A stretch of 64,000 bases of DNA from Macrostomum lignano. Its lineage: Eukaryota. The stretch covers positions 434,001-498,000 of the forward strand of contig NIVC01000362.1 of the NCBI GenBank assembly GCA_002269645.1, in the 5' to 3' direction. The notes under the pieces were generated by a model. It was not told the origin of the DNA, did no database searches, and was given only the letters and a program-made list of their open reading frames with translations. Shown one piece after another: positions 6,057 to 33,650 of this stretch; position 1 is the first letter of the stretch, and the number at the start of each line of letters is the position of its first letter. Position numbers and translations under genes: made by a program.

Positions 6057-6676
6057 TACAGCGGCATCGGGCATTACCTGCATGTGAGTTCATGAACAAT
6101 AAAAAGATCTTTGAAGAAGATTTGAATTGAAGATTTTTATTCTTCATCACTAATTGGACAGACGGAATGAATGAGTCGGAGGTTCGCGTCCGGACCAGAA
6201 AGCTGTATCTAAGCGGATAAAGGAGTAAATTCCCTTCCTGTATGAATGCTGCAAGCGAACAAAATTGAAAATTTTAACACTTACTTGAGCCTCTAATTTG
6301 CATTTTTCTTCCGATTAACGCACCAAATATGGAAGTTTGCCAAGTTAAAATTGGAACAGTTAAAACGCAATGCGCTGCAGTCTTTGCGCAGCTTTGAGAG
6401 TGCAGCAGCTCATTACGCTGATTGCAGTGGAAAATCTATATGTACCGGTATGAGCAATGTATTTCCGACTTTGAGGTTGGGTCTGAAATCTCAGAAGATT
6501 CTCATAGCCCCAGTTCATTGATTAAGGTAAAATAGCAATAAAGTCTTATCTATGAATGCACTCTGATGTTCGAAGAGAAAAAGAACTTGTTGGGCTTGTT
6601 CTCTGTCAGACAAGAGTCAGTCAGTCACTCACTTAGACAGCAAAGTCATGTAATTGATAGGCTAGATAGTTACTAA

Positions 6677-6853
6677 GGGTGGGGTTTCACAAACGCGAAA
6701 TTTCACAACCACTAAAAGCACTTGCTTTCACAACCGCGAAACTTCACAACCGCTAAAATTTTTGCACTTACTTTCATATACGACAGTCTTTTTAGCGGTT
6801 GTGAAGTTTCGCGTTTATGAAAGTAGGTGATTTCGCGTTTGTGAAAGCAACCC
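6677..6853. mobile_element. 177-bp MITE with 8-bp target-site duplication
   Basis: GTTACTAA is duplicated at 6669-6676 and 6854-6861. Imperfect TIRs read GGGTGGGGTTTCACAAACGCGAAAT and GGGTTGCTTTCACAAACGCGAAAT (rc). A second internal inverted pair is CGCGAAACTTCACAACCGCTAAAA. Confidence 0.85.
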
Positions 6854-7152
6854 GTTACTAACGCAGGGCTTTACTGATTTAAATTCTCGCCAGTCTACAA
6901 AAACAAAAAATATCATTGATTTAATTTGCAAATGTTTTATAATGCAAATCCATTGTTTTGATTTTTATTCCCGGAAAAGTAATGTTTTTAACCATCGAAA
7001 TTTTTTTAGGCAAAACTTCTGCAATTTCCTGATTAAAAAATCTAACATTTTACTCGTACCCGGCCTCCTGCCTCATTGAAGACTTTCCAGTCTGCAGATT
7101 TTAATCGTCTGATTAAACTGAAGGTCAGGAGGCTCTAAAATTGGGGTTTGGA

Positions 7153-7226
7153 CGGAGTGCGGTGGGTGCAGGAGTGGGGTCTGAGCGGAGTGAGGTGGGT
7201 GCAGGAGTGGAGTCTGTGCGGAGTGA
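7153..7226. repeat. Left part of a 33-bp G-rich minisatellite split by the LTR element
   Basis: Same unit (GTGAGGTGGGTGCAGGAGTGGAGTCTGTGCGGA) as at 24089-24325. Confidence 0.9.
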
Positions 7227-7879
7227 TGAAGTGATACATTTTGGCTCTAGAAAGCTCCCATCCAGATTGAATGTATTTTAACCAATGAATGCGCTCCAAA
7301 TAGCAAAAGCTGAGGACACGACCCCAACCTCAACCAATGAAAAGCAGTTATGTACCATCCAATGCGATCAAGACTGAAAAGTACTATAAAAGCTCATGTT
7401 AACCAAGCAAGAAGCTCGCCTTTTGCTCGCTCCGCCTCTCCTCGCCCTTGCCTCTCCTTCGCCATTCTCCTAGCTTACCTCGTTTGACTATTTTGATTGA
7501 CACAGTTAGGGTCTCAACCCAAACACCAAAACTTATAAGTCGACTTACTAAAGCCAAACCAACACCCAATCCACGTTTCACAATAGACTGAACCTTCGGT
7601 TCACCCGAACAACTAGAAACACCTTGTGACTTAAATCGAACGAGCTTCTTATTTGGAATTCCACCTTAGACATTATATTTTGTAAGATAACATCTCGAGA
7701 TTGTGACCATCAAATACAACGGTCTGTAAGTTAACATCAAGTGTTTGCATCATCAGGAAAAGTCAGTTGAATCCGCCGCCTCAGTTATTTGGCTCTCACA
7801 TTGATATTTGAAGTAGAACAAGAGCCATAGAAGTGAGAGACCAGAAGAAGAACAAGAAAATATATTTTAAAATATTTCA
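7227..7879 (+). repeat. 5' LTR (653 bp)
   Basis: Starts TGAAGTGATA and ends AATATTTCA. No differences from 23436-24088 seen by eye. Confidence 0.97.
7282..7391 (+). promoter_or_regulatory. LTR U3 promoter: three CCAAT boxes and a TATA box
   Basis: CCAAT at 7282, 7334 and 7359; TATAAAA at 7385-7391. The same motifs are in the 3' LTR. Confidence 0.65.
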
Positions 7880-7880
7880 C

Positions 7881-7894
7881 TGGTTCCCTGACCG
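7881..7894 (+). promoter_or_regulatory. Primer-binding site complementary to the tRNA-Glu 3' end
   Basis: TGGTTCCCTGACCG lies 1 nt after the LTR. It is the reverse complement of the metazoan tRNA-Glu(CTC) 3' end ...CGGUCAGGGAACCA. Confidence 0.85.
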
Positions 7895-9661
7895 TACTTT
7901 TCCTCCGATGCTTTTCACCACAATAGCCGCTATGCCCTGCATGGGGTAGACAGCTATAGGCGTGGCTGATGGGTGTGAACGGTTGGACTGGCTCCCCCCC
8001 TCCCCTTTGAGCATTCGAGACTGTCAATAATACATATTCGACGAATGAATCGTAAATCACGAGCTCTCAAATTCAAATTCAGAATTCAAATCGGTTCTAA
8101 GTTTTGTCCAGTGCACTGAGACCTGATTCAAGTTGTTTCAAATTCAAAGGATCCATGAAAGTCAATACATTATCGTTCCGGAACAATTTCAATTTCAACT
8201 TCAATTCAATTCAAGAAACGTCGACGAACGTCTGATATCGAGTTCTTATTCTCAAGCCTCAGAGCTTCAATGCAGAAATTCAATTCAGTTATTCGGATCC
8301 TCAATTGTTCAAGCTTCAAAGCTTCGATTTTTCAAAGACCGCGGCATCATCAATTGTTCAAGTTTATTTAATGTTGGACGCCTCTTCCTTCACTGCTTTT
8401 CCACAGAATAGCAAAGTCTGCTCTGGATTTCTTCATATATATTTGAAACTCTCCAAAGCGACTGAGCCATTCGTTTTCCTTCTCGGTTTTTCCCAGTGTG
8501 TGGCCACATCTAGAAAACTGGCTTATCTCAGATTCTCTGCGCCGTTAAGCGCCCGAAAGAAAGAACGAAAACGCAAAAAACCTGACGAGCTATTCAAACA
8601 AAGTCACTTCAGCAAATATTAATCAAACTCTGGAGCCACCAATTTCTTGCTGTCAACAAAAAAAAAATTTTTTTCGCTTATCCGACAGGCTGCTTGCCTG
8701 ACCATTCATCATTTTCCTTGATTAAAGTCCCAACCAATTGTTTGCCGAACCTGCGTGCTTCATCCGGAAAACTTTTCTGATTTTCGTAGACCGCTTGCCT
8801 AGCCTTTCATTATTTTTCTTGATTAAACACTCCAAACTCACTGTTTGCAAACCCCACGAGCCCCATCCATCAAATCCTTATCGACCCAAGTTTTTTTTCG
8901 GATTGCTGATTCTGGCAGTTGCCTTCTATGGATCATTCGGGATGCTGGGAATTTCTTGCGTGTTTAATCAACTCCAGTTCCCTCCAATAAATATTAATCT
9001 TAAACAAACTGCCCAAATCAGACTTTGTGTGCCTACTTGACCTCCCAGAGAGACCTCTTTTCTTGATTAAAACCATCACTCAACTTTATCTCCCACAAAA
9101 AATCTTTTCCTTAATCAAACTGTCCAGGCCAGCTCCATCCTGCCACTCACCCTCCGGTTCAGCGACCTTTTCACGATCTCTGATAAACAATTTCCCCAGG
9201 AATTTTTTCTTCTCCTAGCCATTTCTCGTTTTTGTATGATGGATTAAGATCCAAACAACTTCTACTTTTCTCTCATCTCCCTATTGCCAAAGGCAATAGA
9301 TGCTTAGTGCCCCATACAGCTTTTGCCCTACTTATTTTGTTAACCATCTTGTTCCCGTTTTTACGAAAACTACTTTTTACGCTATCCATCCTTTGCTTTG
9401 TCAAGATTGAGCCCTACCCATAGCCCCCCTCTAACCTGAGCAGCCTTTATCAATTCAAATAGTTAAACAGGTTAGTTATGTATTTTTTTACAAAAACATT
9501 CACACGTACAAAAGGGTAATCGCAACAATAACAATATAAATATATGTACACTAATAAGCAATTCAATTGTCGTTAGCATATCTACAAAAACTATACAAAA
9601 TTACAAAAAAATTAAATTCAAGATTACCCCTACCTTCAGTCGGTTAGCCCCTTCAATTACA

Positions 9662-9943
9662 TTAAACTAAGATAAAATTACCCCAACGGCGTCCTGCGAC
9701 AATCTCTTCTTCCACATGCTGGAGCTCCTGCCACCATTCGAGGCGGCGCTCACACCACTTACGGACGGGTGTGACTAGCCGCCTGAACGCTGACAGGAGT
9801 CGCAAACCCCGCCGAGCACCCCGCTTCGTGTCGCGGGGCCAACCGTCCTCCAGCAGCAATTCGAGTTCCCACAACCGCCGACAGAGCCACCACCATTGAT
9901 CCGCCGTCTTCCTCGTCCTTTCGAGTTGAGCTTGCATAGCCAT
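9662..9943 (-). CDS. Possible antisense accessory ORF of the element (93 aa from ATG 9943; Trp/Arg/Glu-rich)
   Basis: MAMQAQLERTRKTADQWWWLCRRLWELELLLEDGWPR... lies in a GC-richer island of the leader. No homology recognised. Confidence 0.3.
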   Translation of the reverse strand: MAMQAQLERTRKTADQWWWLCRRLWELELLLEDGWPRDTKRGARRGLRLLSAFRRLVTPVRKWCERRLEWWQELQHVEEEIVAGRRWGNFILV

Positions 9944-10335
9944 AATGAATAAGTCGAGCAATCGTCGTCCGGGAGTGTTTGAAGTAGCGGAGTCGCGAAG
10001 GAGTAGCAAGCCTTACCCGTCCCCCTTCAGTTTCACCAATATAACCGCCCCGTCTCCCAGGCATGGCTTGGAATCCCCCTAACCAACCAATGAGGACGCC
10101 GCAAACTCTGTTCCCAACTCCCTTCAGAATTCGCCATCAACAGCACTATTATACTAGCACTTTTGCAGCACTATAGATTGACAGAATCCTGCACTCTTGA
10201 GTTAATCTCCTCTCCAGTACTACCGAAGCCAACTGCAAGAACGACACTCTTCACATCCAGTCTCTACCGTTCCAGCAACTTGGTAACACTGTAAATTAAA
10301 TTAAAGTGCTTTAATTCACTCATTATAATTTCAAC

Positions 10336-11145
10336 ATGACTACTTTCGCACGTATCTACGCTGAAGCCGCATCCCTTACTGCCCCTGATGATGTCCCACT
10401 ATTTGATTGCCAGTGTCAGACGTATTATTGCCAACATCGCCGCAGTTTCATTTACTATTGCCCCTCCTATCTCTCGCCCTTTCCGCTTCCTCAAACCGTC
10501 AAGCCCGCAATCCCGGATTCCCTGTTTCACGATCTCTTCAGTTGTAATGGACGCCCTGGTCCCGTAACCAAGTTTGTCCTCGCCATTACTGATTCCTACC
10601 TGACCCACATTTATGACTGCCTCCAATGCCACATCCCGGGGCAGATAGACAATATGCTATTCCATCTCGAAGGCTTCCATCTGCCGCCCCTGCAAGGAGC
10701 TTTTAAGTCCGCAATCGTCGATATAGCCCTCCGATGCCAGAACTTCGAGCTACTCTTCCGCGCTCTGCGTTGCGTTGATTTTCATACCGGCGTTCCTCTT
10801 CGCTACAAAGATCTCCGCCGAATATACTGTCGCAAAATTGATGACGAGGAGTGTGAACGCCACGAACTATTGCTCCAGAGCTTTGTTCCCCCCGTTTCCG
10901 ACTCACCCTTAAGCCTGTTCCACCTTGCCTCTTACCAACTTCGCTACCACTTCTGGTCGACCTGGACGCGCCATCGCGGCAGTTCTAGAGGTCAGGCCAT
11001 TGAAGCTCATTTCCTCACCCTCCCTCGGTTCCACCGGGAACATATAGTTGGCCACCCCGACTTCACCGACGACCCCTGTTTCGACGTTAGCGACTCTCCT
11101 TGCCCCAAACTCCTCGCCTCCGCATGCGGTGGTCGTCCTGATTGA
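10336..11145 (+). CDS. Accessory ORF upstream of gag (269 aa, Cys/His-rich, unknown function)
   Basis: ATG-initiated, uninterrupted and non-repetitive. A possible acceptor TTAATCTCCTCTCCAG ends at 10217. Confidence 0.7.
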   Translation: MTTFARIYAEAASLTAPDDVPLFDCQCQTYYCQHRRSFIYYCPSYLSPFPLPQTVKPAIPDSLFHDLFSCNGRPGPVTKFVLAITDSYLTHIYDCLQCHIPGQIDNMLFHLEGFHLPPLQGAFKSAIVDIALRCQNFELLFRALRCVDFHTGVPLRYKDLRRIYCRKIDDEECERHELLLQSFVPPVSDSPLSLFHLASYQLRYHFWSTWTRHRGSSRGQAIEAHFLTLPRFHREHIVGHPDFTDDPCFDVSDSPCPKLLASACGGRPD

Positions 11146-11298
11146 TTCCCCCCCATAAGCCGCAATTTCTATCGCCTCAGCATCAGCCCCCCTTGGGCCC
11201 TGTAAATATACTATACTCTCTCATTGTCTTTTGATCATAGTCTCATTTCCAATTCACTTTCTGTTACTTTAAACTGCATGGTGTACACCCTACTTTGA

Positions 11299-11600
11299 AA
11301 ATGATCATTTGATCGACAAAAAAATACAAAAAATTTAAAACCTCAAAAAACGCACGTCTCCATTTACTCTTCTTCGCTTCATCTATGCTAGACTATTCAC
11401 ATAGTATTTTCGTAGCCTGCGACAAACTCAAAATGATCATTAGATCGCAAAAAATAATAAAACTTGAAAACACAAAAAACAATACCATTGCTTATAGTTC
11501 ATTTCGTACAACCCGTACTGCTCTTATCATGTTAAAGTTACAAAATGATCAGTCCGATCAATAAAAATTATAAAATTTTCAAAAATTAAAAAATAGCAAA
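11299..11600 (+). repeat. Three dispersed copies of AAAATGATCA-N3-GATC followed by an A-rich tract
   Basis: Copies start near 11299, 11430 and 11543. Each GATC...GATC can form a small hairpin. Confidence 0.6.
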
Positions 11601-11873
11601 TTTACAAAACTACAAAAACATTACTCTACGTTTGCTTAAAATTATGAAATCAACCCCCCTAGCTGAAACTCGTCAGATAGTTCAAAATTCAAATTCGAAA
11701 TTCAAAAAGCCAGAACAAATTCTCAGAAGAAAACTGCCGACTTCAAAAGAATAAACTGCCGACTTCAAGAAAAAGAAAACTGCCGATTTCAATGATACAA
11801 ATTCGATTTTTATTGGCCACCACTGATGTCCGTCTAGTCCAACATTCAGGAGCTCCTTTATCAAATTCAGTTT

Positions 11874-12110
11874 CAAAGTTTCAGAACCGATCAAACGGCA
11901 GTTCAATTCAAAATTTCCGAGTTCAAAATTTCAAAATTCAAAGTTTCAGAACCGATCAAACGGCAGTTCAATTCAAAATTTCCGAGTTCAAAATTTCAAA
12001 ATTCAAAGTTTCAGAACCGATCAAACGGCAGTTCAATTCAAGATTTCCGAGTTCAAAATTTCAAAATTCAAAGTTTCAGAACCAATCAAAAGGCAGTTCA
12101 ATTCAAAATT
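11874..12110 (+). repeat. 65-bp tandem repeat (~3.7 copies) in the gag leader
   Basis: CAAAGTTTCAGAACC starts at 11874, 11939, 12004 and 12069. Confidence 0.92.
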
Positions 12111-12162
12111 ACTTCGATTTTCAAAGCTCGTCGCAGATTACAGTTAAAAAAAAATTACACAG

Positions 12163-12186
12163 TCTCTCTTTTTCTCCCTTCTCCAG
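12163..12186 (+). promoter_or_regulatory. Putative 3' splice acceptor upstream of gag
   Basis: Polypyrimidine tract TCTCTCTTTTTCTCCCTTCTCC followed by AG (12185-12186). The gag-frame ATG is at 12313. Confidence 0.55.
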
Positions 12187-12312
12187 CCAGTCCGCCAACC
12201 GCAACCCTGAAAGCCATTGCCGTTTGCTCACTTTGAATTTGACACTCTACTTTGCTATTAGTTACACTTTTGTGCTATTGTTGCCTTGAAATTATTGATT
12301 GAATTCTTGTTA

Positions 12313-14340
12313 ATGACCACACCTGTCCGAGATTTACGTTCCGGACCAGTTTTTCAAAGCTCAAATATTAACAGACCCCCTGAACAAAATTTAGAAACTT
12401 CTGACCGCCAAATAGGTGAACAGCTCCCACGAAATAGTTCACCAGTACCTAACCTGTTTATACCAGATAACGTTGAGTTTAATAACCCTCTCGCGGATCA
12501 TTTTGAACACAACCGTGCACACTCACCAGCACCCAGTTCCATCCTAACAGACGCGGACGAAACAGTTCAACAAGCCCCAAACGATATTGCTGAAGAATCT
12601 ACTCTAGATATGGCTGATCAGGACGGCGCTCCCCATGTTGATGCTGCTGCGACAAATGCTGTCCGTGAACTTACTGATGTTATGAACCGCAGTCTGCAAT
12701 TGCAATCAAACCATCCCGTCTCAGCTACTGCTCTTGCTGAAATTCGTCAATCCCTGAAAGGAATCGACCAAATGCATGACTTCCGTTCCTTCACTGAAGA
12801 GTTCGACTTGATCACACGCTCCTTTGGACTATCGGAGAACGCAAAGATTCGGCTCTTCCCGCGACTACTGAATGACCTTCTTAAACTCGAATATAGTCGC
12901 CTCTCTGCCGCAGTCCAAGCCTCTTATCCAGCCACCATTGAGGCACTGTCTCAACGCCTTCGGGAAGTAACCATTGGCTCGGCTCTAACGCTGCATAATG
13001 CAACAACCCGGAAACAACAGTACGGCGAACCGTTCCTGTCTTATTTCACCGACATTCGTCGAAAGCTCAGGTCAGCTATGCCGGAAATACCGGAAGAATT
13101 TCCGGAAGGTGCCGGTCCGGAAACACCACCCGCGAACCAAGCTGTCATCGACCAGCGCAACCGAGACTTCCTTGCTACCCTGATGGCTACGACTATCAAC
13201 AATGCTCTACCCTACATCAAACGAGAACTCTTGAAGCAAAATATCACCACGGAAAGTACGCTAATCAACAAGGCCATCCGCGCCGAACAAATCCGCGACT
13301 CCACCATGGACTCTGATGGCACTGACTTGAAAGCTCTCACAGAGCGTCTAACTACCTTAGAAAAAACGACGAAGGAAGCCAATCAGCAGGTGGTTGCCTC
13401 CCTGCAAACACAAACCAAGCCACCTATCGCTAATATGCAACAGAAGCCCACTTGTTATCATTGCGGTCGACCTGGACACTATGCCGCCGACTGTCGTCGA
13501 AGGAATGACCAACAACCTCGTCCCTTCCGACCTAACTCAAGTGATCGAAGGAACACAGCCCAATACGGCTCTGATGCCCCGCGAAATCGTTACCAGCAGG
13601 GACCGCCACGATTGACCTGTAACTATTGCCGAAAACCAGGACACTCTATTAACCAGTGCCGACTACGAGCCCAACGTACACAAGGCTACGGTCCACCGGC
13701 GACACAACAATCACGATTTCCACCCCGTCAAGACTATGGAAACCGGCCTCAGCAACGCTATCCGCCTCGATACAACGGCGCCAACAATCAACGACAACCT
13801 CCGAGATTTGCGCAACAACAATATCCACCGATACGCGCCATCACTGCTCAGGACCCTGAAACGTCCCACCCAGGATGGAATCAACAGCCGCAGATTGGAT
13901 GGACGACTCACGACGCTCCCGAGTCTGCCCAACTGATGCACATTGCTACAGTTGATGAACGCCCACCGACTTTTGGAAACGAAATTCGCTACTCTGGAGA
14001 CGCTAAGCAGCTGAAATCCTTACTCAAAAAACCGACTACTGCTTCTGCGACTATCAACTCTATCCGCCTTTGTACGGTTGAAAGAATGACTGACACCTAC
14101 ACTCCACCGACCAGCAACAACAACCGCGAGAAAACCGTGAAAGCTTCCGTCGGAATTCGCCGATCACTACTGACACTTTTTCTCCTGTGCCTAGCAACTT
14201 CACTCTTCGCACTAGCCAACGCTACGCCGGTAACGACGTCAACCCACCATCGATTGAGAGACAATCTCACGAGGGCTTCATTGACACACCAATGGTCTGT
14301 CCGTACAACCAGATCCACGAATTTTCACGATACCACATGA
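12313..14340 (+). CDS. gag: Gag (capsid-like region and two CCHC zinc knuckles) running in frame into a signal peptide
   Basis: CYHCGRPGHYAADC (13453-13494) and CNYCRKPGHSINQC (13618-13659); MHR-like KQQYGEPFLSYF; C-terminal RR-SLLTLFLLCLATSLFALANA signal sequence. Confidence 0.92.
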   Translation: MTTPVRDLRSGPVFQSSNINRPPEQNLETSDRQIGEQLPRNSSPVPNLFIPDNVEFNNPLADHFEHNRAHSPAPSSILTDADETVQQAPNDIAEESTLDMADQDGAPHVDAAATNAVRELTDVMNRSLQLQSNHPVSATALAEIRQSLKGIDQMHDFRSFTEEFDLITRSFGLSENAKIRLFPRLLNDLLKLEYSRLSAAVQASYPATIEALSQRLREVTIGSALTLHNATTRKQQYGEPFLSYFTDIRRKLRSAMPEIPEEFPEGAGPETPPANQAVIDQRNRDFLATLMATTINNALPYIKRELLKQNITTESTLINKAIRAEQIRDSTMDSDGTDLKALTERLTTLEKTTKEANQQVVASLQTQTKPPIANMQQKPTCYHCGRPGHYAADCRRRNDQQPRPFRPNSSDRRNTAQYGSDAPRNRYQQGPPRLTCNYCRKPGHSINQCRLRAQRTQGYGPPATQQSRFPPRQDYGNRPQQRYPPRYNGANNQRQPPRFAQQQYPPIRAITAQDPETSHPGWNQQPQIGWTTHDAPESAQLMHIATVDERPPTFGNEIRYSGDAKQLKSLLKKPTTASATINSIRLCTVERMTDTYTPPTSNNNREKTVKASVGIRRSLLTLFLLCLATSLFALANATPVTTSTHHRLRDNLTRASLTHQWSVRTTRSTNFHDTT

Positions 14341-17020
14341 GATCCGTTGCGAACAGCTCAAACACCAAACAACGCCGACACTCCCGTTGAAACTGGAACT
14401 TTACACAACGAACGTAGAAACCAGTTCCCTGGTTATGACTGTCTGTTTCCGCGAAAAAATCACTATTAGATGTGATAAGGCGGTGATAAGAACCTGGACA
14501 TCCGCCCTGGTAGAGTTGGAACCGCAACCAGTCACTCAAGCTGATTGTGAAAACTGGGCACGAACAAAGCTATCGCCTGATGGACCATTAGTGTTAAAGA
14601 CTGCGTCAACTCAGTCTATCCAACGCCTGCAATCGACATTCAACACGCAAAATGCCGTGCGTTGCACTCCTGGTTCACATTCAGAACAAATAGTAACAAC
14701 AGTGATCACCGGAATCCCAGCCTACTCAACAGCAGATCAAAAAATGGAATCTTTGTCCTTCCCAATGGACAACTGCAAACTCGCCGACAAATTTTGTACA
14801 ATTAAAAAAACTGCACAAGAAATGCGAGCTTTCAACCTACCTTTGCCGATACTAACATCCCCCTGGGATCCTTTGGAAACTGAAGCAATCTACCAAATTG
14901 ACGTGAAAGGACCAAGACATCTAAATCTTATTTGGACACCTCCACCACTCGCTGATTGTCCTTTAAAACAATTTCGTACTCTTGAAGGCAACTTAAACTC
15001 CGGCTTGTTCTTAACTAATGATCAAACATTGGGACTAACCTTCAACCCAGTGCCGTCGACTCACACTCTCACCTGCACTGGCGTCCGTAAGACGTTGTAC
15101 CTTTCAACGCAAGGTCTATACGTAGACATCCTCGACAACAAAGAAGCAGAATTTCTCGCCACCTTACGAAGCCCATTAGAAGAAGCTACTCCAAAACCTC
15201 AAACTAGCGAAGAAACCACTTCTTCGAGACAAAAACGTCGTTCACCACCAGCGATACTACCAACGCCACCAACAATATTACCCGTTCAGCAATCGACGAC
15301 TCAACATCCTTTCACTACGACAACTCAGTCACGACAATTCCTACCGCCGCAACCTTTACGACAAGAGCGACCTGATCATCCACCGACGTCAAGCACTTCT
15401 ACAACAATGACGCCAACTACTACGATACTAACTACTACAAAATCAACACCAACAACTACAATTTTGACAACGACAACACCACCGACTACAATGACAACAC
15501 CACCAGCTACGACGACAATCCACCGACTACAACGACAACAATACCTACCACAACCGTAACACCGACAACTTCAACAACCACAACTGCTACAACCTCAGCA
15601 GCAACAACAACAGCAGGTCCAACTACGACGACAACAAAAGTGACGACACAACCTCGTACCACCACCACTTTACCGCCAACAACCTCAACCTCTAGCAGCA
15701 CAACCAGTGCACCAGCAAAGTCTGCAACCTCAACCTTCACGACAAACTCACCAGCGACAACAACAGATCCACAACTGGCTTCTATTCATACGAATCTAGC
15801 AGTTCCATATCACGAACCACAAGGTGGTCAACCGGATCTCCTACTACTACACGCAACAAGCGAAGCACAGATGACAAAACCATCGCAGCCCCTTCAGGCA
15901 ACTCTACTGCGCAACTTTCATCAACGTTCACATCCGCTGAACTTCTTGCTGGACAACTACAAGGAGCTGCTAGTAAAGCTCGAAAAGACCTTCTCCAAGT
16001 ACAGAGGCAGCTTGCAACACACTCAATGCATGATGTACGCAACTAGTCTCAAGTACAACCGACAGTTATACTACACACAACCAACGCTCGCTGCTCGACT
16101 CTTATTAAATGATCCTTTCTTGCGAGCTAGATCCATTGCTGGATATCTCTTCGTCTACCAGTGCAAACCTCTACATCAATTTCGCTTTGTCCAACCAAAG
16201 TATAAGACGAACCAATGCTTCACGCGTCCCCACTGGAATTCCGTCTACAAAATTATACTGTTCTTGGATTTTTGGACACAACGACTCGTATTGTCTCCAC
16301 AGCTACTCCAGCTCTAATCTCATGCGACGCCTTCCCGTACTACTACCTGCCTAAACAATCGATGCTATTCAAGACCACACTAAATTTTTCGAGGTTTGAA
16401 CCCACAACTGCTAATGTCAGATCCGATGAAAACTATCGGTTGTCCGATTTGCAAACTTCAGTCTCCGAAAGCATCTTCAAACCTATGGGAGATATCAATT
16501 ATACTTCACTTCGTAGTCCGATAACGGTGACCGACCTAATGCACCAGTTCATGCAAACTCGTGATTTCTGATTACGGTTTTCAAACTTCCGAATCGAACA
16601 CGACATAGAACAGCACATGCTGACAGTGCATTCCTGGACTCAAACTAGCTCTCCTCAACTATGGTCTTCGTCGATATTCAACTGGGATCGACTAGTCGCA
16701 AACTATCAAGAAAAGTTCGTATTAACAGCAGCTGTTATTGTCTACATTGCCGTTATTATCTTCGTGTGCAATCTTGGCCGACTCTGCGTGCCAGCACCAT
16801 CCGTTACGGCAGAACGCACACTATACAAGTGCTGCGGCAACAACGAACTCCAACTCGAGTGGAATCACGAAACGACTACTCCCAACAACAGCAACTGATA
16901 CCACCGAGACAAGCGCCAACACCCTCGGCACCCATCGAAACGATTGAACTTCGTGCCACCCTTCCGCCACCACGGAGACCACCGCCAGAACCTAAAGTTC
17001 CAAAATGGCCAGCAAACTAC
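14086..17020 (+). CDS. env: Envelope glycoprotein, class III fusogen-like (gB / rhabdovirus G-like). As sequenced it is split by five -1 frame slips and an in-frame TGA (16569-16571)
   Basis: Signal peptide with an A-N-A site ending at 14223. CFREKITIRCD...PVTQADC resembles the VSV-G CHASKWVTTCD...PSVEQC pattern. QPTLAARLLLNDPFLRARSIAGYLFVYQCKPL resembles herpes gB NPNAIAS...VSARMLGDVMAVSTCVPV. Furin site RQKRR at 15227-15241; TM FVLTAAVIVYIAVIIFVC at 16716-16769. Confidence 0.78.
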
Positions 17021-17418
17021 TCATACGCCTTTGTTTTGAAGCATCTAACAACAGCAACTATGATCAACCTGTGGTGCCGCAACGCACCGCATACTCGACA
17101 CAGATGCACCGCCCTCATTGACAGCGGCGCCTCGATCTCCTGCATCTCACCGGCATTCGCCAAGAAGCTTCGAGTACCACTACAAGACACCAACATGAAC
17201 GCCATTTGTGCGGGAGGACAACAACTAAACCTCAACAAAAAGGCCACTTTTGATCTCGAAATCGATGGACGCAACCACAAGATATCGGCCTTTGTGCTCG
17301 ACACCCCGACGCTGACTATGATTTACTCTTAGGAGTAGAAACCTTTAAGTCACTGGGAATACCACTACAATTCGACTACTCGAAAGCGACAGCTAAGCTT
17401 GGCAATGAGCAATTTGCG
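17021..17418 (+). CDS. pro: Retropepsin-type aspartic protease, split by a -1 slip near 17305
   Basis: ALIDSGAS (Asp at 17120) is in frame 2. The C-terminal DLLLG motif is in frame 1; restoring one C in ACCCC gives FVLDTPDADYDLLLGVETF. Confidence 0.88.
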
Positions 17419-20400
17419 ATGCTCAACTCCATCCAACAGTTGCAAGAAACCTCTGCGGTGATGCAAAACAAGCTAGAGTTACCACCACAGACAACGCACC
17501 AAGTCACGCTGAAACTCTCTTCTCGACATGAGCCAACGATTCCTGTCCTGTTCGTCCCTAAGGACCACACGATCCAGAAACACCAGTTGATGATACCAAC
17601 TTGCCTTGTTTCTGTCAACCCGGACGGACAAACTATCACTGTGGAAATTGCCAACCCGTCGCTGACAACGCAAACCTTGCATCCTCAACAAGTCATTGGA
17701 AATCTGGCTAACATGTCTGACTACAACATCGTACGACCAGCAGCTCAAATCAACAATCTACGCACGCTGCAGCAAGAAACACCAACGACTGACATGATCC
17801 GTACTCAACTCAAGCAAGCCAACCAGCACCTCTCAACCGAGCAGAGTGAACAATTAGTCACTCTAATGAACAAGTACCGCGACGTCTTGGCACTACTGCC
17901 AACCGACATGGGTTGCTCTACCCAATACACGGCTCACCTGCATCTACACCCACACTCTGAGCCAGTCACGTCCAGACCCTATCCAATCGCTCATGGACTA
18001 CAAGAACGGTTTGACGAACTTATCGAAAACTTCCGTCAAAAGGGAATCATCAGTCCGAGTGAATCTGAATACTCGAGTCCATGTCTTCTCGTGGAAAAGA
18101 AGACGCTCGACGCTCAAGGTCGCCGACAACTAAGACTCGTGACGGATTACCGAAAACTGAACAAGCTAATTCGTGCTCCTAGCATCCGACCTCCGAAGAT
18201 TCCGGATTTGCTACATCGATTGAAGAACGCTAAACTGTACACACTCTGTGACCTAGCAGATGCTTTCTACCAAGTTCGGATCGATCCAGAAAGCACAAAA
18301 TACACTGCGTTCATTGCACCCAACGGCCTACTTTGGGAATTCAATCGACTACCTCAAGGACTCAAGTCCAGTCCTAGCTTAATGTGCCGTCTTGTAGCAT
18401 TGTTAACAGCTGACTCTCCAAATCAGATTGCCTACTTGGATGACGTCATGCTCATCGCCGAAGACTTCACCGGCATGCTCAAAGAAATCGAACGCTTCTT
18501 CCAAAAGTTACGACATCATGGATTGCGAATTTCACTACGAAAATGCATCTTTGCTAAAACAGAGGTACAATATCTTGGATTTGTGGTTTCTGCTCAAGGC
18601 ATTAGACCCGCACCCAGCCTCATCGAGAAAATCAAGACCTTCCCTGTGCCTCAAACGGTAAAACAACTACAATCTTTCCTTGGACTTGCAAATTTCTACC
18701 GAACGCACATTGCTGGCTACTCACGAGTAGTACAACCACTTCTGAGTATTATCAAAAACACTTCAAAACCCAACAAATTCGTCTGGACAAACGCTGCGCA
18801 AACAGCCTTTGAAAAGCTGAAACAACTTCTCTCTACGGATATACTACTGGTTCATCCAAATCCGCGAAAACCGTACTTCCTTCACACTAATGCCTCGGAT
18901 ACCGCCATTGGAGCAGTACTCTCACAGCTAGACGACAGCAACCACCAACGCCCGGTTGCCTACATCTCTAAGACGTTAAGCTCAATTGAACAACGCTATC
19001 CACCGATCGAACGCGAAGCATACGCCATCTATTGGGCAATAAAGAAGCTACACGTGTTCCTCTACGCTTCTTATCAACAGTTCCACGTCTTCACTGATCA
19101 CCAGCCACTCAAGAGTCTATTCAGTGACAAGCAGCCAATTTCAAAACGACTTCAGAAGTGGATTCTAGCGCTACAAGATTACAACTTCACTCTCAACTAT
19201 GTGAAAGGCAAATCAAATGTAGTAGCGGACTGCCTTTCACGCATCCCCAAAGTCTGTCAGATACAATCGCTGTCAACATTCAAAGGACTGCAGGATGCCA
19301 TTGATCAAGACCCATTACTGTCAACAATCAAAGCACTTCTATCGGAAAAATCACCCACTCACGAGCTGTCCAAGAAAGACCAACAATATGTTCGCCGACA
19401 CCTGGCACGTTATTTCCTGGACGGAAACACTCTATACTTTGAAGATGACGAAGGACGAAGCCGCCTCGTGATACCAACACGCTACCGTGAAGCTCTTTTG
19501 ACAAGTAACCACTCGACAGCCCTTGGTGGTCATCTAGGTCACCAAAAGACAGCAGACAAAATCAGTCATTTCTACTACTGGCCTACACTACGGCAAGACG
19601 TCTTCAATTTCATTAACAACTGCGAAATCTGCCACAAAGCGAAAACAGCACCTCGACTGCGACCGCTGCACAAAGCCGTCAAATTCAACGAGGTTTTCTC
19701 TCATTTGGCTATCGACCTTGTAGGTCCACTGCCACCAGCTTCACACGGCCGCGACGTCTACAAGTACATACTCACAGCCCAATGCGGCGTTAGCAAATTC
19801 CTGTTCACAATCCCGCTAACTGAGACAACTTCTGCAACCATCTGCAACAGTCTCTTCAACCGCGTGTTCGCCTTCGCAGGACTACCAGCACACATCATCT
19901 CAGATAACGGACCCCAATTCATCTCGCAAGAATTTCGAGAGTTTATGGGTGCCCTTGGAATACACCTGATCTACACCTCGGTGTACCAACCATCCAGCAA
20001 CTTCGTCGAACGCGCACACAAGACACTGAAGCAAACTCTTACGGCCTTTGTCCATGACAAACCAGATCTCTGGATTGACTTCCTACCCGCGGTGACACTA
20101 GCAATCAATACCGCCACTCACTCAACGATGAACGAATCACCATTCTACTTGTTCTTCGCTCGAGACTTTCTGCCACCCAACGCACGGATCATGGAACACC
20201 AGACAACTGCATACATGGACGTTATTAAACCAGTCAATTTGACCTGTTCAGCTATTCTGCTTGCCAGAGAAGTCGCCAAGGAACTTCTGCACAACTCAGC
20301 TGAACAGCGCGCTGAAAACTCTGATAAGAAGACCAACAGCCGCTACATACGCCCGGGTGCACGATGCTATTTGGATGTCTCAGCAACGAAGGAGACAAAA

Positions 20401-20718
20401 TTCTCCAATCCTTATCGTGGCCCAATGCGTCTACTAGCATGGCTCTCCGATCAGAACGCACTGATTTCTGATGTCAACCGGCCAAGCGAACGACCAATCG
20501 TGGTACATGCCTCCAAGCTGAAACCATGGCCTGGAGATGGACTCAGCGCTGGACCTAGTCACCTACCTGAGTTCACAACTGATGACATTCAGGTCCACCA
20601 CAACCATCGGCCGCAATTGAGCAAGTCCATCGCGCTGCAAACCACGTCCACTGATGAGCCACCAGGTCAGCCACAGACGCACGGCTACAACCTAAGATCG
20701 AAGAACAAGAAGTCGTGA
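17419..20718 (+). CDS. pol: Pol: degenerate dUTPase-like spacer, reverse transcriptase, RNase H, integrase
   Basis: RT motifs YSSPCLLVEKK, RLVTDYRKLN, LPQGLK and YLDD (18433-18444). RNase H reads TNAS (normally TDAS) and FTDHQPL. Integrase has HHCC, D(LVGP), D(NGPQF), E(RAH) and a GPY/F-like NPYRGP. Confidence 0.97.
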   Translation: MLNSIQQLQETSAVMQNKLELPPQTTHQVTLKLSSRHEPTIPVLFVPKDHTIQKHQLMIPTCLVSVNPDGQTITVEIANPSLTTQTLHPQQVIGNLANMSDYNIVRPAAQINNLRTLQQETPTTDMIRTQLKQANQHLSTEQSEQLVTLMNKYRDVLALLPTDMGCSTQYTAHLHLHPHSEPVTSRPYPIAHGLQERFDELIENFRQKGIISPSESEYSSPCLLVEKKTLDAQGRRQLRLVTDYRKLNKLIRAPSIRPPKIPDLLHRLKNAKLYTLCDLADAFYQVRIDPESTKYTAFIAPNGLLWEFNRLPQGLKSSPSLMCRLVALLTADSPNQIAYLDDVMLIAEDFTGMLKEIERFFQKLRHHGLRISLRKCIFAKTEVQYLGFVVSAQGIRPAPSLIEKIKTFPVPQTVKQLQSFLGLANFYRTHIAGYSRVVQPLLSIIKNTSKPNKFVWTNAAQTAFEKLKQLLSTDILLVHPNPRKPYFLHTNASDTAIGAVLSQLDDSNHQRPVAYISKTLSSIEQRYPPIEREAYAIYWAIKKLHVFLYASYQQFHVFTDHQPLKSLFSDKQPISKRLQKWILALQDYNFTLNYVKGKSNVVADCLSRIPKVCQIQSLSTFKGLQDAIDQDPLLSTIKALLSEKSPTHELSKKDQQYVRRHLARYFLDGNTLYFEDDEGRSRLVIPTRYREALLTSNHSTALGGHLGHQKTADKISHFYYWPTLRQDVFNFINNCEICHKAKTAPRLRPLHKAVKFNEVFSHLAIDLVGPLPPASHGRDVYKYILTAQCGVSKFLFTIPLTETTSATICNSLFNRVFAFAGLPAHIISDNGPQFISQEFREFMGALGIHLIYTSVYQPSSNFVERAHKTLKQTLTAFVHDKPDLWIDFLPAVTLAINTATHSTMNESPFYLFFARDFLPPNARIMEHQTTAYMDVIKPVNLTCSAILLAREVAKELLHNSAEQRAENSDKKTNSRYIRPGARCYLDVSATKETKFSNPYRGPMRLLAWLSDQNALISDVNRPSERPIVVHASKLKPWPGDGLSAGPSHLPEFTTDDIQVHHNHRPQLSKSIALQTTSTDEPPGQPQTHGYNLRSKNKKS

Positions 20719-20761
20719 ATGATAAAAATCTTCTAAATTTCTTTTCTCCTTTCTTTTCCTT

Positions 20762-20823
20762 GACTGACAATATTGCTTTCTCTTCCTTTCTTTCTCTTCC
20801 TTTTTTCTTTCCTTCTTTTCTAG
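20762..20823 (+). promoter_or_regulatory. Strong 3' splice acceptor after pol (branch point, polypyrimidine tract, TAG)
   Basis: CTGAC at 20764-20768, a ~45-nt pyrimidine tract, then TAG at 20821-20823. A second acceptor, TTTACATTGCAG, ends at 20958. Confidence 0.6.
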
Positions 20824-20887
20824 CTTTTGCTCTCTCTCCCTGCATTGCGACTCTTTACGTGACTACGAGTATTGACGAACTGACACA

Positions 20888-21976
20888 ATGAACTTTTATT
20901 TTCCGTTTTATCAACAAAAGCTACAAAAAATTTTCTCTTTTCCCTCTTTACATTGCAGAGCTCACACGCTAAAACAATATTTTGTGTATCTATTGCTTTT
21001 CTCCTTTTTCCTTTCTCTTATGGATCCATTTCCGCAACCGATGGATATTCGACCACAGTTAAATCATGATCTTATTTGCCTCGCAACCGTTGTTGCTTGG
21101 TTCACTGAAGCAATATTTTATTCTGAAACTATTGGTGAACCCCAACGGCTACGCATGGCCTCCGCTTTCTTCTCTCGTTTTTATGTTATCCGCTGCCATC
21201 GCTTTTATCCTAAGATGCTCCGCGTTCTACGAATTAGTCTATTTGGTGTGCTGCGTCGTACTCACTCACGACCACGTATACAGAACTTTTCTCCCACTAT
21301 GACTGACGTTCTCAACCGCAGCTTTGTACCAATCATACATTTTCTTTTCTCTCCTAATATGTCTATCGACGATTTCTTTCAACTCTCTGCTTCTACTCTC
21401 CCTCAACCATGCATGCGCTTTAACCAAGACACTTGGCCTCTGTTGCTTTCCTCTCTACGCTACCCATGGCAACAATTCCGCCATGATGCTGCTAATCTTT
21501 CGGCGCAACAGTTAACTTCTACGCTCCAAAATTATTTAACCTCCTTCGATTCTCTCGCCCCTTATGTTTATCAAATTTTTCCTCCATTTTCTCCTCGTGC
21601 TACTAAGAAAGCTATGATACGCACGCTCAATCGTTTGTATCCGCACAATTTTTTCTTTACCCACGCTGTTTTCATTCTCTCAACGCGTTCAAGAAGCTTT
21701 GCTTTTATAATTATCGATTTTTATTCTCGCTCGGTAGTTGCCCATACTATTTTTCCTTTCTCTTGTCCTCCCCTTCGTCGATATTTATACGATATTCACC
21801 GTATACGAAATGCTCTTGTTGGCTATCCTAACACCTTGCCAGAGTACGCCACTCTTCATACCTTCTCCATCAAGCGTATTCAACATTCTCCGCCTTCTGA
21901 TCCTAATATTAATTTTGCTCGACTGGCATACGCTCTTTTTTATGACTTGATTCACCATCATCGCTCACTATTTTAA
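20888..21976 (+). CDS. Accessory ORF downstream of pol (362 aa, or 318 aa from ATG 21020), unknown function
   Basis: Long, uninterrupted, non-repetitive ORF with T-rich codon use. No comparable ORF on the minus strand. Directly preceded by acceptors. Confidence 0.75.
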   Translation: MNFYFPFYQQKLQKIFSFPSLHCRAHTLKQYFVYLLLFSFFLSLMDPFPQPMDIRPQLNHDLICLATVVAWFTEAIFYSETIGEPQRLRMASAFFSRFYVIRCHRFYPKMLRVLRISLFGVLRRTHSRPRIQNFSPTMTDVLNRSFVPIIHFLFSPNMSIDDFFQLSASTLPQPCMRFNQDTWPLLLSSLRYPWQQFRHDAANLSAQQLTSTLQNYLTSFDSLAPYVYQIFPPFSPRATKKAMIRTLNRLYPHNFFFTHAVFILSTRSRSFAFIIIDFYSRSVVAHTIFPFSCPPLRRYLYDIHRIRNALVGYPNTLPEYATLHTFSIKRIQHSPPSDPNINFARLAYALFYDLIHHHRSLF

Positions 21977-22420
21977 TCCGCTTTTTCTTCAATATTGAGC
22001 GCTGAAACACTACAAAAATTGTTCAAAAATACTAAAAAAAAATATTTTCCGTTCTTCTGCCTATTACTCCTCCGCTCTTTTGCGCTCACTTGTGTAAAGC
22101 TTACGCTATTTTTCTCTGTTATTCTGTCAACTGCTTTTTCAAAAGTCATCACGCGCTAGCCTGCTCAACCCTGCTCAACCCTGCTCAACCCTGCTCAACC
22201 CTGCCCAACCCTGACCTACACGACTGCTGCTCTGTGCCTGGTCACTGCCAATTGCTGTCTCTGGCGCTGCTTCAACCGGATTCAAGCCACAACCTTGATC
22301 TACGCAGCCATCGCCCTACACTATGCCTGGTCTCTGCAAATCGCTCTGTCCCTGGCGCTGCTTTCACCTAAGTCAACCAACTAGCACTAAAGCATACGGC
22401 TCAACAACGTTTGTTCCTTC

Positions 22421-22843
22421 ATGACTGCACAGTCTGCTTATCTGACAACTTCGGCATCACATCAAGTGGTGGCCCTGAAAAGGGCCGTTGTTGCGTTCAG
22501 AAGGCCGGACGAACCAGCAAAGCAGCTCGGCTCTTACACCACCGACTCCGCTGGCGGCGCCTCCACATCTGCTACCGCAGTCGACGCTCCAGGCGCGCCC
22601 GACCTGCAGCAGTTGCGCCGACAACAACGACAGCAACGGCAACATTGGCACAGCAGCAGCAGCAGCACCAGCACTCCCAGCACAGCGAGAAGGACGAGCG
22701 TGATCGCCCACCGCCTGTCGCCAAGGTCCCAATCATCTTGGGACCGCTTTGCTAAGTCGCCTAGCAAAAACCGCAAGTTCTTCCTTGTGCTCATGATGAA
22801 TCGAATTTACTTGATTATTAACCGTCAGTCAAAAATCGCTTAA
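22421..22843. CDS. GC-rich island with overlapping candidate ORFs: plus 22421-22843 (140 aa) and minus 22794-22534 (86 aa, single TM plus Cys cluster)
   Basis: Both are ATG-initiated. The minus ORF has WAITLVLLAVLGVLVLLLLL-CQCCRCCRCCRRNCC. The coding strand cannot be decided from sequence. Confidence 0.35.
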
Positions 22844-23420
22844 CTCGCCTTGCTCCATTTTAAAGCTTTGTGTTATATACCCCCTTTGGACTGTACACTT
22901 TTTCCTAGAATTTTTATCTTTTTCGTTTCCCCAGTTAAAATTTTAACCTCTACTTTGTACATGATTTATTAGCTGAGCGGTTCCTCGCTAACCCCCCCCC
23001 CAACTTTCGCTGTACAATGATTTTTATTACCCTCCTTTTAACTCACCGCGTTTTCACTTTAAGCTTGCGTCGCTAAACCTCCATTTTGCTCTGTACACCC
23101 ATTTTATCGATTTTTTGGTTACCCTCGCTGCGTTTTATTCCATCCTTGCTTAGCTAGTTTAGCTTCGCCTAACTAAAGGCCCTCTGCGCTATCCCTTCTT
23201 TCGCTATTTAAACTGATGTTGTACTTTAACCTATGTTACCTTGCTTAAATTGGTTCCCTTTTACTCAAACATTTTTGCTAACATTATTCACTGCGCACTA
23301 TTTTTTCTGCGACAACTTTTCTCGTTCACTACAATGCGTTATCTTTTTCTGCAATTTTATCAATTTTAACCCCTACTATACTTTTTCTGTTTTTATGCGC
23401 TCGGAGGGCCTCGCTTCCCC

Positions 23421-23435
23421 GAAAAATAGAGCGAA
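23421..23435 (+). promoter_or_regulatory. Polypurine tract
   Basis: GAAAAATAGAGCGAA directly abuts the TG of the 3' LTR. Confidence 0.8.
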
Positions 23436-24088
23436 TGAAGTGATACATTTTGGCTCTAGAAAGCTCCCATCCAGATTGAATGTATTTTAACCAATGAATG
23501 CGCTCCAAATAGCAAAAGCTGAGGACACGACCCCAACCTCAACCAATGAAAAGCAGTTATGTACCATCCAATGCGATCAAGACTGAAAAGTACTATAAAA
23601 GCTCATGTTAACCAAGCAAGAAGCTCGCCTTTTGCTCGCTCCGCCTCTCCTCGCCCTTGCCTCTCCTTCGCCATTCTCCTAGCTTACCTCGTTTGACTAT
23701 TTTGATTGACACAGTTAGGGTCTCAACCCAAACACCAAAACTTATAAGTCGACTTACTAAAGCCAAACCAACACCCAATCCACGTTTCACAATAGACTGA
23801 ACCTTCGGTTCACCCGAACAACTAGAAACACCTTGTGACTTAAATCGAACGAGCTTCTTATTTGGAATTCCACCTTAGACATTATATTTTGTAAGATAAC
23901 ATCTCGAGATTGTGACCATCAAATACAACGGTCTGTAAGTTAACATCAAGTGTTTGCATCATCAGGAAAAGTCAGTTGAATCCGCCGCCTCAGTTATTTG
24001 GCTCTCACATTGATATTTGAAGTAGAACAAGAGCCATAGAAGTGAGAGACCAGAAGAAGAACAAGAAAATATATTTTAAAATATTTCA
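23436..24088 (+). repeat. 3' LTR (653 bp)
   Basis: Same length and apparently the same sequence as 7227-7879; followed by the TSD GTGA. Confidence 0.97.
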
Positions 24089-24325
24089 GTGAGGTGGGTG
24101 CAGGAGTGGAGTCTGTGCGGAGTGAGGTGGGTGCAGGAGTGGAGTCTGTGCGGAGTGAGGTGGGTGCAGGAGTGGAGTCTTTGCGGAGTGAGGTGGGTGC
24201 AAGAGTGGAGTCTGTGCGGAGTGAGGTGGGTGCAAGAGTGGAGTCTGTGCGGAGTGAGGTGGGTGCAGGAGTGGGGTCTGAGCGGAGTGAGGTGGGTGCA
24301 GGAGTGGGGTCTAGCTGGAGTGAGG
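24089..24325. repeat. 33-bp G-rich minisatellite (~7 copies), right part of the array hit by the element
   Basis: Unit GTGAGGTGGGTGCAGGAGTGGAGTCTGTGCGGA; 11-aa-periodic ORFs. Confidence 0.95.
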
Positions 24326-33197: not shown

Positions 33198-33650
33198 TTA
33201 AAGATTTTCAATGCAAAAAATAAAGAAAAAGACAAAGCCCCTGGCCGATAAACTTTATCACACATTGCAACAAATATTAAGAGTCAAAATAATTTGTACC
33301 AGTAAATGTATATAGTGTCTTAGGAAATGATTAACTTTGCATAAGCAGAATTAATTTAGGTGTCGTTTTAGTCAGGAAACAAAAAAGCAGTCAAATTAAT
33401 AAGAAAATACTATATTTAATAATACGGTGATATTATTGAAAGGTGGATTACGAAACAGAGGGGGAAATGCGAGTTTTTAATATAACCACGACTAAATTAA
33501 CTTGTATGAATTACCTGATGACACGCTGGTATACAAATGATTTTACATTAAATATTAGTATACAATATTATACAAGTATGTATGTAGGCATTTTTATATC
33601 TAACGAATTTTCGAAAAACGTCATAGGTAACAGTGTTACTGTTGATCCAT

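Follow-up and report, generated by a model that had tools for sequence, protein, structure and literature searches.

The locus described here raises the question of whether Gag, an envelope protein (Env) and Pol of a flatworm retroelement can be encoded, in that order, in one continuous reading frame, and how such a product would be divided. The window, by which is meant the whole stretch of 64,000 nucleotides that was analysed (Macrostomum lignano assembly GCA_002269645.1, contig NIVC01000362.1, positions 434,001 to 498,000 of the forward strand), holds a complete long terminal repeat (LTR) element of Ty3/gypsy type at 7227-24088 (16,862 bp). A first-pass annotation had placed an element at 12313-20718; this interval stood as the coding core of the complete element, about half of which, with two further open reading frames (ORFs), had been left out. 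The best explanation of the locus is a young, multi-copy Ty3/gypsy element in which Gag, a predicted gB-like class III Env and Pol share one frame of ~2,800 codons. A probability of roughly 0.85 is assigned to this reading, taken jointly for gene order, single frame, Env fold and selection on env.

Gene order and continuity of the reading frame

In the window copy the order is gag, a hydrophobic signal, a Cys-rich ectodomain, a transmembrane helix, protease (PR), reverse transcriptase (RT), RNase H (RH), integrase (IN) and a stop codon, and no intergenic gap was found by Pfam searches, hydrophobic segments or ORFs, as had been proposed from the sequence. Pfam identified a CCHC knuckle (zf-CCHC, E 2e-8), then nothing, and then aspartic protease, RT, RH and IN. 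Two knuckles of the form CX2CX4HX4C are located in the Gag region at ~13453 and ~13618, and a conserved basic/amphipathic block lies at 13990-14025. Set against a sister copy with a naturally open stretch from env through protease, the copy in the window carries 10 frame-changing indels between ~14244 and ~17308 (11 indel bins by a second method) and no in-frame nonsense codon. The first-pass annotation had counted six slips of one nucleotide and one TGA, which was right in substance and wrong in detail; the TGA, at 16896-16898, lies out of frame and is reached as a stop only after the slip near 16790.

Continuity was examined using natural copies only and 12 landmarks, counting for each interval the loci that cover both of its landmarks, the window included. 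The frame was open from the Gag N-terminus to the knuckle in 12 of 12 loci, from the knuckle to the signal in 8 of 11, and from the signal to the ectodomain in 14 of 18. It was open from the ectodomain to the first furin site in 10 of 19 loci, and in 9 of 19 loci each across the Thr-rich spacer, from the spacer to the transmembrane helix, and from there to the protease. Downstream, open frames were observed from protease to RT (5/19), RT to RH (10/17), RH to IN (8/16) and IN to the end (11/15); the pol intervals RT-RH and RH-IN were broken about as often as the env junctions. Over the env-protease stretch 1 to 30 breaks were found per locus; these were mostly copy-specific and none was common to more than 5 of the 19 compared loci. 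With the Thr-rich repeat excluded from the tally, 18% of 149 breaks were located at homopolymer runs of at least 4, against a background of 6%, an approximately threefold enrichment. Judged from the sequences, this pattern fits long-read assembly error or private decay and does not suggest a programmed shift. The breaks in the window copy are very probably assembly errors or private lesions and no part of the design.

Unbroken relatives exist. Protein P0001 of Macrostomum lignano (2,852 aa) is a continuous Gag-Env-PR-RT-RH-IN product collinear with the window, to which it shows 39% identity in Gag, 37-38% in env and 61% in pol; P0001, P0005 and P0006 are all unbroken proteins of 2,852-2,859 aa with the same collinearity. 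A single continuous frame of ~2,800 aa, as first suggested, is therefore upheld by overlapping open copies together with unbroken relatives. When the N-terminal half of Env was searched against 1.84 billion representatives, four matches were returned, among which P0002 and P0003 are fragments running from Gag into env. Protein word searches, which were weak and crowded by long or low-complexity candidates, returned nothing beyond P0001.

Two of the database records are unusual in themselves. The Gag-env fragment P0002 / P0009 is labelled as coming from a Kangiellaceae bacterium metagenome-assembled genome and lies on a 9-kb contig; this is probably DNA of an animal that was binned with a marine metagenome, and would point to relatives in some other host. 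Record P0004 (3,074 aa) fuses a non-LTR RNase H, a piece of a glycosyl hydrolase and Gag-env-transmembrane-protease, and looks like a chimeric gene model.

In genome G000 the Env N-half gave 130 matches spread over several families. Matches outside the window's family were paired by hand with a nearby RT match on the same contig, leaving out those that could not be paired, and these distant families are described by coordinates and frame lengths. In all 62 pairs env was located upstream of RT. One open frame spanned both in 29 of the 62 pairs, and 17 of those 29 frames were 2,300-2,866 aa in length. By these coordinates and frame lengths, the single frame appears to be a property of the whole radiation and not of one family.

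Some of the distant loci have a different form. Five contigs (C301, C352, C525, C1192 and C2869) carry Env N-half matches at 31% identity, each in an open frame of exactly 1,031 aa, and no match to the Env C-half or to RT was present among the matches listed for them, which come from the part of the candidates that was scored; they are possibly a multiplied, truncated Gag-env derivative. Loci L047, L048 and L050 belong to a family 42% identical in env, two having the same in-frame stop (612-aa frame) and the third a stop elsewhere.

Fold, spacer and selection of the envelope

The Env model was built from the ectodomain of a natural copy (868 aa) with an alignment of eight rows. It comprises a beta-rich N-half, a disordered spacer, a helix of 56 residues and a beta domain; pLDDT (predicted local distance difference test) was mostly 60-90 for residues 51-317 and mostly 50-75 for residues 616-740. 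When the model was compared with the PDB using Foldseek, herpesvirus gB was found in all 31 rows listed (best E 9e-11). Against a viral library the matches were nyamivirus, rhabdovirus-like, gB and entomopoxvirus proteins, with Midway nyavirus G the best (E 8e-16). These matches to herpes gB and nyavirus G bear out the class III fusogen fold that the first-pass annotation had put forward. A second look with VIA, which is not independent of Foldseek, gave Z-scores of up to 8.9 (210 residues, 6.7 A), and superposed 110 Env residues at 2.8 A on domain I of human cytomegalovirus (HCMV) gB.

Homology was also sought in the sequence. Env residues 584-716 align weakly to HCMV gB 453-589 (E 0.1-0.3) and the alignment reaches the central helix; the aligned gB stretch presumably starts at the gB furin loop. 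Pfam found no match in the window env itself, and among eight env relatives it found Monjiviricetes_fusion in one (E 8e-6) and Glycoprotein_B in two (E 0.02). At the level of domains the moderate-confidence model has the class III layout: PH-like domains enclose a beta fusion domain, after which come a long central helix and then a beta crown domain. Env is accordingly modelled as a gB-like class III fusogen. Fourteen Cys were counted in the ectodomain, and the 10 Cys of the Env N-half are conserved in families of 40% identity.

The two halves of Env are separated by a mucin-like spacer of 244 aa with 50% Thr+Ser in the modelled natural copy and of 170 aa with 40% in P0001. Among copies the length of the spacer ranges from about 650 to 960 nt. 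The gap between the env halves is ~90 nt in distant families versus 680-860 nt in those bearing the spacer, which is therefore regarded as a clade-specific addition. Overlapping alignments of L012 and L019, which correspond to the 13742-15236 region of the window, indicate a duplication of ~265 nt at the boundary of N-half and spacer, with a spacer interval of ~960 nt.

Selection was estimated as the ratio of non-synonymous to synonymous polymorphism (pN/pS) from distinct variants among related copies, the figures being descriptive. The ratio was 0.11 for the Env N-half (62 synonymous, 21 non-synonymous changes) and 0.10 for the C-half (59 and 19), compared with 0.41 for the spacer, 0.23 for gag, 0.09 for tail and protease, 0.04 for RT-RH and 0.12 for integrase. 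On these counts env is maintained by purifying selection and is no passenger.

Topology, proposed processing and alternative readings

Only two hydrophobic segments, the signal and the transmembrane helix, occur in the 2,852 aa of P0001. The natural env-RT stretch likewise has only two, and five of its seven sequons are located in the ectodomain between them. Based on established rules of endoplasmic reticulum (ER) topology, one internal signal and one stop-transfer segment would leave both Gag and protease-Pol on the cytosolic side, with the ectodomain in the lumen. The topology proposed for the locus at the outset was thus found to be self-consistent.

A processing scheme which follows this topology can be considered somewhat more probable as a whole than its absence. 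Gag would be made in the cytosol until the internal signal sequence directs the ribosome to the ER, where signal peptidase would release Env and leave Gag tethered to the membrane through the signal. The ectodomain would be glycosylated in the lumen, and the transmembrane helix would halt transfer, so that protease, RT, RNase H and integrase would be synthesised as Env's cytosolic tail. Cutting at two sites, furin would excise the mucin-like spacer. Trimerisation of Env and assembly would crowd the protease, which would cut the Pol enzymes loose from the tail of Env and also release Gag from its anchor. Pol would in this way reach the particle as the tail of a fusogen and not as Gag-Pol, and enveloped particles would bud where capsid, enzymes and fusogen meet on one membrane. 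Capsid anchors of flaviviruses and hepaciviruses and the Env leader peptide of foamy viruses also join a capsid to an envelope signal, the precursor being divided by signalase, furin and viral protease. The likeness is an analogy in working only; the replication enzymes and the fusogen class are unrelated.

Candidate cleavage sites were sought for the element's protease. The window has motifs resembling [VIL]N[ST][IL] ahead of both the signal and RT; in P0001 they are located after the nucleocapsid (NC) and ahead of both RT and IN. The motif is loose and has other matches too, and as a processing site it may serve as a lead only. A block [YFW]xGxxxQ[LF]KxL[LI] was found between NC and signal in the window, P0001 and P0002, and not in P0003 or P0004.

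Several observations weigh against the reading of the locus given above. None of the 20 loci of the window's family is open end to end, so that for this particular family the single frame is pieced together from overlapping copies and from relatives, and the breaks per kb between transmembrane helix and protease (10 of 19 loci in ~390 nt) exceed those of other intervals. The mean pLDDT of the Env model is only 49.7 with an eight-sequence alignment, residues 318-615 and 741-868 being below 50; whole-model TM-scores are 0.11-0.25, and Z-scores of 8-9 are close to the warning level of the tool. Sequence-only support for gB is not significant (E 0.1-0.3; atlas scores of at most 0.81), and a search of the PDB with an alignment profile of env gave no gB match. 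An in-frame Met ~23 codons upstream of the signal, present in the window (14086) and in P0001, would suit a second start. The leader of 4,432 nt contains 38 ATGs, which suggests splicing, and in a crude scan acceptor-like sites were found just before gag and ORF-A, one of the two further ORFs. A 1:1:1 ratio of Gag, Env and Pol would moreover be odd for a capsid.

The alternatives differ in how much of this they take up. The chances are about even that Env works only within the animal or the cell, through budding into the ER or passage to neighbouring cells (soma to germ line), with no transmission between animals. Gag anchored by the signal would point to assembly at internal membranes, and close-relative scans of viral and metagenome contigs, which were weak, found no relative. 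Host-associated clades are read as long-term vertical inheritance in the text of PMC13524379. Against this, a mucin-like shield and furin sites would suit the secretory route and outside fluids, although all of the sequence data agree with this alternative.

A less likely alternative, given a minor share of the probability, is one frame in the DNA served by several messages: most Gag would come from a separate spliced or truncated RNA, Env-Pol would be translated from another that starts at the Met before the signal, and the full polyprotein would be a minor product. That Met, the long leader and the acceptor-like sites are in its favour, the element probably splicing anyway, and it would resolve the stoichiometry of Gag, Env and Pol. 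However, the crude scan found no acceptor-like site in 13900-14170, before env, or ahead of the protease; the gag/env frame is kept open in several distinct families; and the window, P0001 and P0002 all retain the block between NC and signal.

It is very improbable that env and protease, or gag and env, are parted by a programmed frameshift or read-through which tunes their ratio. The interval from transmembrane helix to protease is the most broken per kb, and two positions in it recur in five loci each, but the interval is open in 9 of 19 loci, P0001, P0004 and frames of 2,458-2,866 aa are continuous, and no canonical slippery heptamer was found at the gag/env or env/protease junction. The idea that an ordinary gag-pol element carries env as a decayed passenger or a nested insertion is scarcely credible. 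In its favour, the 10 slips of the window copy are all confined to env and protease, with gag and RT-IN free of them. Against it, every full-length sister copy has env at this position, in agreement with the integral env of the first-pass annotation, and so do families sharing only 27-43% identity in env; by pN/pS the constraint on env is as strong as that on integrase, and in other copies pol is broken equally often.

The element, its accessory frames and its relatives

The features of the element are collected in Table 1. The 5' and 3' LTRs are identical and, by the established logic of LTR dating, the insertion is very recent. The primer-binding site (PBS) is taken to be of the tRNA-Glu type. 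No canonical heat-shock element, defined by the pattern in PMC12801592, was found in the LTR; the text of that paper makes no mention of envelope or glycoprotein.

Table 1. Coordinates of the Ty3/gypsy element and its parts within the 64,000-nucleotide window
Feature	Position	Strand	Basis and remarks
Left 4-bp target-site duplication	7223..7226	+	Sequence; insertion point within a 33-bp tandem repeat
5' LTR, 653 bp	7227..7879	+	TG...CA ends; TATA-like box at 7385; identical to 3' LTR
PBS	7881..7894	+	Begins TGG, one base past LTR
Accessory ORF-A, 269 aa	10336..11145	+	Retained by sister copies and by a subfamily of 63-76% identity
65-bp tandem repeat in leader, 3.7 copies	11872..12110	+	Repeat analysis
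Gag region	12313..14157	+	Capsid-like part by homology to N-termini of P0001-P0004
Putative internal signal sequence, in frame with Gag	14158..14220	+	Hydrophobicity; cleavage site predicted
Env N-half, predicted class III fusogen domains I/II	14221..15226	+	Broken in window copy near 14244, 14317
Thr/Ser/Pro-rich mucin-like spacer	15227..15863	+	Flanked by two furin-type sites, RX[KR]R; length differs among copies
Env C-half, predicted long central helix and beta domain	15864..16718	+	Window copy broken at several places, ~15851-16659
Transmembrane helix (stop-transfer)	~16719..16775	+	Hydrophobicity
Cytoplasmic tail, in frame into aspartic protease	16776..17400	+	DSG 17120-17128; window copy broken near 16790, 17308
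RT (YLDD) and RNase H, Ty3/gypsy type	17926..19182	+	Pfam, similarity
Integrase (H2C2 finger, core, tail) and stop of long ORF	19471..20718	+	Stop codon 20716-20718
Accessory ORF-B, up to 362 aa	20888..21976	+	Kept across copies; purifying selection
Polypurine tract (PPT), 13/15 purines	23421..23435	+	Sequence, just before 3' LTR
3' LTR	23436..24088	+	Identical to 5' LTR
Right 4-bp target-site duplication	24089..24092	+	Sequence

A DNA search of G000 with the element gave 26 matches at 93-100% identity from 19 scored candidates. Twenty loci were fetched, which represent 19 copies (L015 and L020 being parts of one), and at least 40 matches were found with the LTR only (40 of 286 candidates scored); copy numbers of the element in G000 are thus lower bounds, at least 19. 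The nearest sister copy (99.4% identity) does not have the left flank of the window copy and is therefore a separate insertion. In the copy on G000 contig C2295 the LTRs are 22.6 kb apart versus 16.2 kb in the window copy, which suggests an insertion of ~6 kb inside that copy.

The classification as Metaviridae is based on TG...CA LTRs, a target-site duplication, PBS, PPT and the order PR-RT-RH-IN, all of which were found. Among solved structures pol is nearest, by similarity, to Ty3 Gag-Pol (E 2.5e-100), the next family being at 2.5e-43, and the pol families identified by Pfam were PF17917, PF17919 and PF17921, with no BEL/Pao families.

The statement in the first-pass annotation that no Metaviridae lineage with this layout had been described does not hold. 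Chary and Hayashi (eLife 2026, PMC13524379) describe Ty3/gypsy errantiviruses of Nematoda, Bryozoa and Platyhelminthes, in several clades, with a gB-type ENV and ORFs in the order GAG-ENV-POL; their text credits Sacco et al. 2022 (J Gen Virol 103, doi 10.1099/jgv.0.001739) for nematode elements with env before pol, and assigns nematode and flatworm elements to different RT clades. Nine platyhelminth elements are tabulated there, one of them from Macrostomum lignano with LTRs of 863 bp and ~10.6 kb from LTR to LTR. The words "polyprotein", "fused", "single ORF", "frameshift" and "splic" do not occur in the main text, the figures and ORF files of which may show a single frame; nor does the text describe a mucin spacer, accessory ORFs or a topology with anchored Gag and Pol on the Env tail. 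The window element resembles these gB-type errantiviruses in its Ty3/gypsy pol, its gB-type env between gag and pol and upstream of the protease, its ectodomain flanked by signal and transmembrane helix, its LTRs, its young and numerous copies (93-100% identical) and its flatworm host. It differs from the tabulated Macrostomum lignano element in LTR length (653 bp), size (16.9 kb) and PBS, and on these grounds belongs to another family. Set apart by that tabulated description, the window element appears to be a new family within a kind of gene order that is already published.

Two further groups invite comparison. The nematode endogenous retroviruses (NERVs) of Sacco and co-workers reportedly have a continuous gag-env-pro-pol ORF, a Nyamiviridae-like env and extra ORFs. 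The window element would share with them the continuous frame, and its best viral fold match is also nyavirus G; the host phylum differs (flatworm versus nematode), and hence it was not filed as a NERV. Atlas virus, of the Belpaoviridae, is described in the text of PMC9094657 as having a single Gag-Pol-Env polyprotein of 2,828 residues and identical LTRs. Gag, Pol and Env in one polyprotein and identical LTRs are common to both, but in Atlas virus the order is Gag-Pol-Env, the fusogen is class II and phlebovirus-like, RT is of BEL/Pao type and Pol does not lie downstream of the transmembrane helix. Neither BEL/Pao pol, nor Gag-Pol-Env order, nor a class II env was found in the window element.

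The accessory ORFs gave no Pfam match, ORF-B gave no atlas match either, and the two show no similarity to each other. In its own frame ORF-B had 45 synonymous and 57 non-synonymous changes (pN/pS 0.38, p 2e-6), the other frames giving 0.75 and 1.41. For ORF-A only 5 synonymous and 7 non-synonymous changes were available (p 0.13), and with 12 changes a non-coding control gave p 0.02 in one of its frames, from which it follows that small counts mislead. The single-sequence fold of ORF-A was uninformative (pLDDT 41.9). A BC-box-like motif was noted at residue 193 of ORF-A; its pattern was chosen after the sequence had been viewed, and 63 of 5,000 shuffles also match. Diverged homologues of ORF-A and ORF-B (57-80% identity) were observed on G000 contigs C2121, C87, C1130 and C1861, which carry other env families, some of them as tandem pieces.

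A wider proposal can be offered tentatively, and on balance is doubtful. Pol would be packaged via Env and not via Gag-Pol, with Gag anchored by the Env signal, Pol forming the cytoplasmic tail of the fusogen, fusogen assembly activating the protease and no replication possible without Env biogenesis. This family would then resemble a complex enveloped flatworm virus in which furin excises a mucin shield and two accessory proteins are under selection, one of them possibly a cullin-recruiting factor of counter-defence.

Some other features of the window and the element were recorded. Short open frames of 115-150 aa occur in the long untranslated regions of the element at 22391-22843 and 9662-10136 (minus strand), with no Pfam match above cut-off. 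Two counterparts of the left flank at 6060-7120, each 94% identical, occur on C268 and C3688, and the flank contains a palindromic dispersed repeat at ~6680-6850. A 470-nt inverted repeat (47588-48057 and 49190-49659; 97% complementary, 1,132 nt apart) is possibly a non-autonomous DNA transposon. Many minisatellite arrays with periods of 17-45 nt and up to 77 copies lie between 3488 and 60727 (e.g. 33649-36309 and 41390-43461), and several long open frames outside the element overlap them.

Since the layout is in print already, the surprise is modest. The interest lies in how such elements work, GAG, ENV and POL being treated as three ORFs in the text of PMC13524379, which is silent on processing. 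The single frame is seen in several families of one genome, with young copies, in a flatworm model that apparently takes transgenes (PMC5730564). How Pol is packaged when it is encoded beyond a transmembrane helix, and whether outside the insects retroelements are carried from cell to cell by gB-type envelopes, would thereby become testable questions, and the mucin spacer and accessory ORFs may offer leads on host defence in flatworms.

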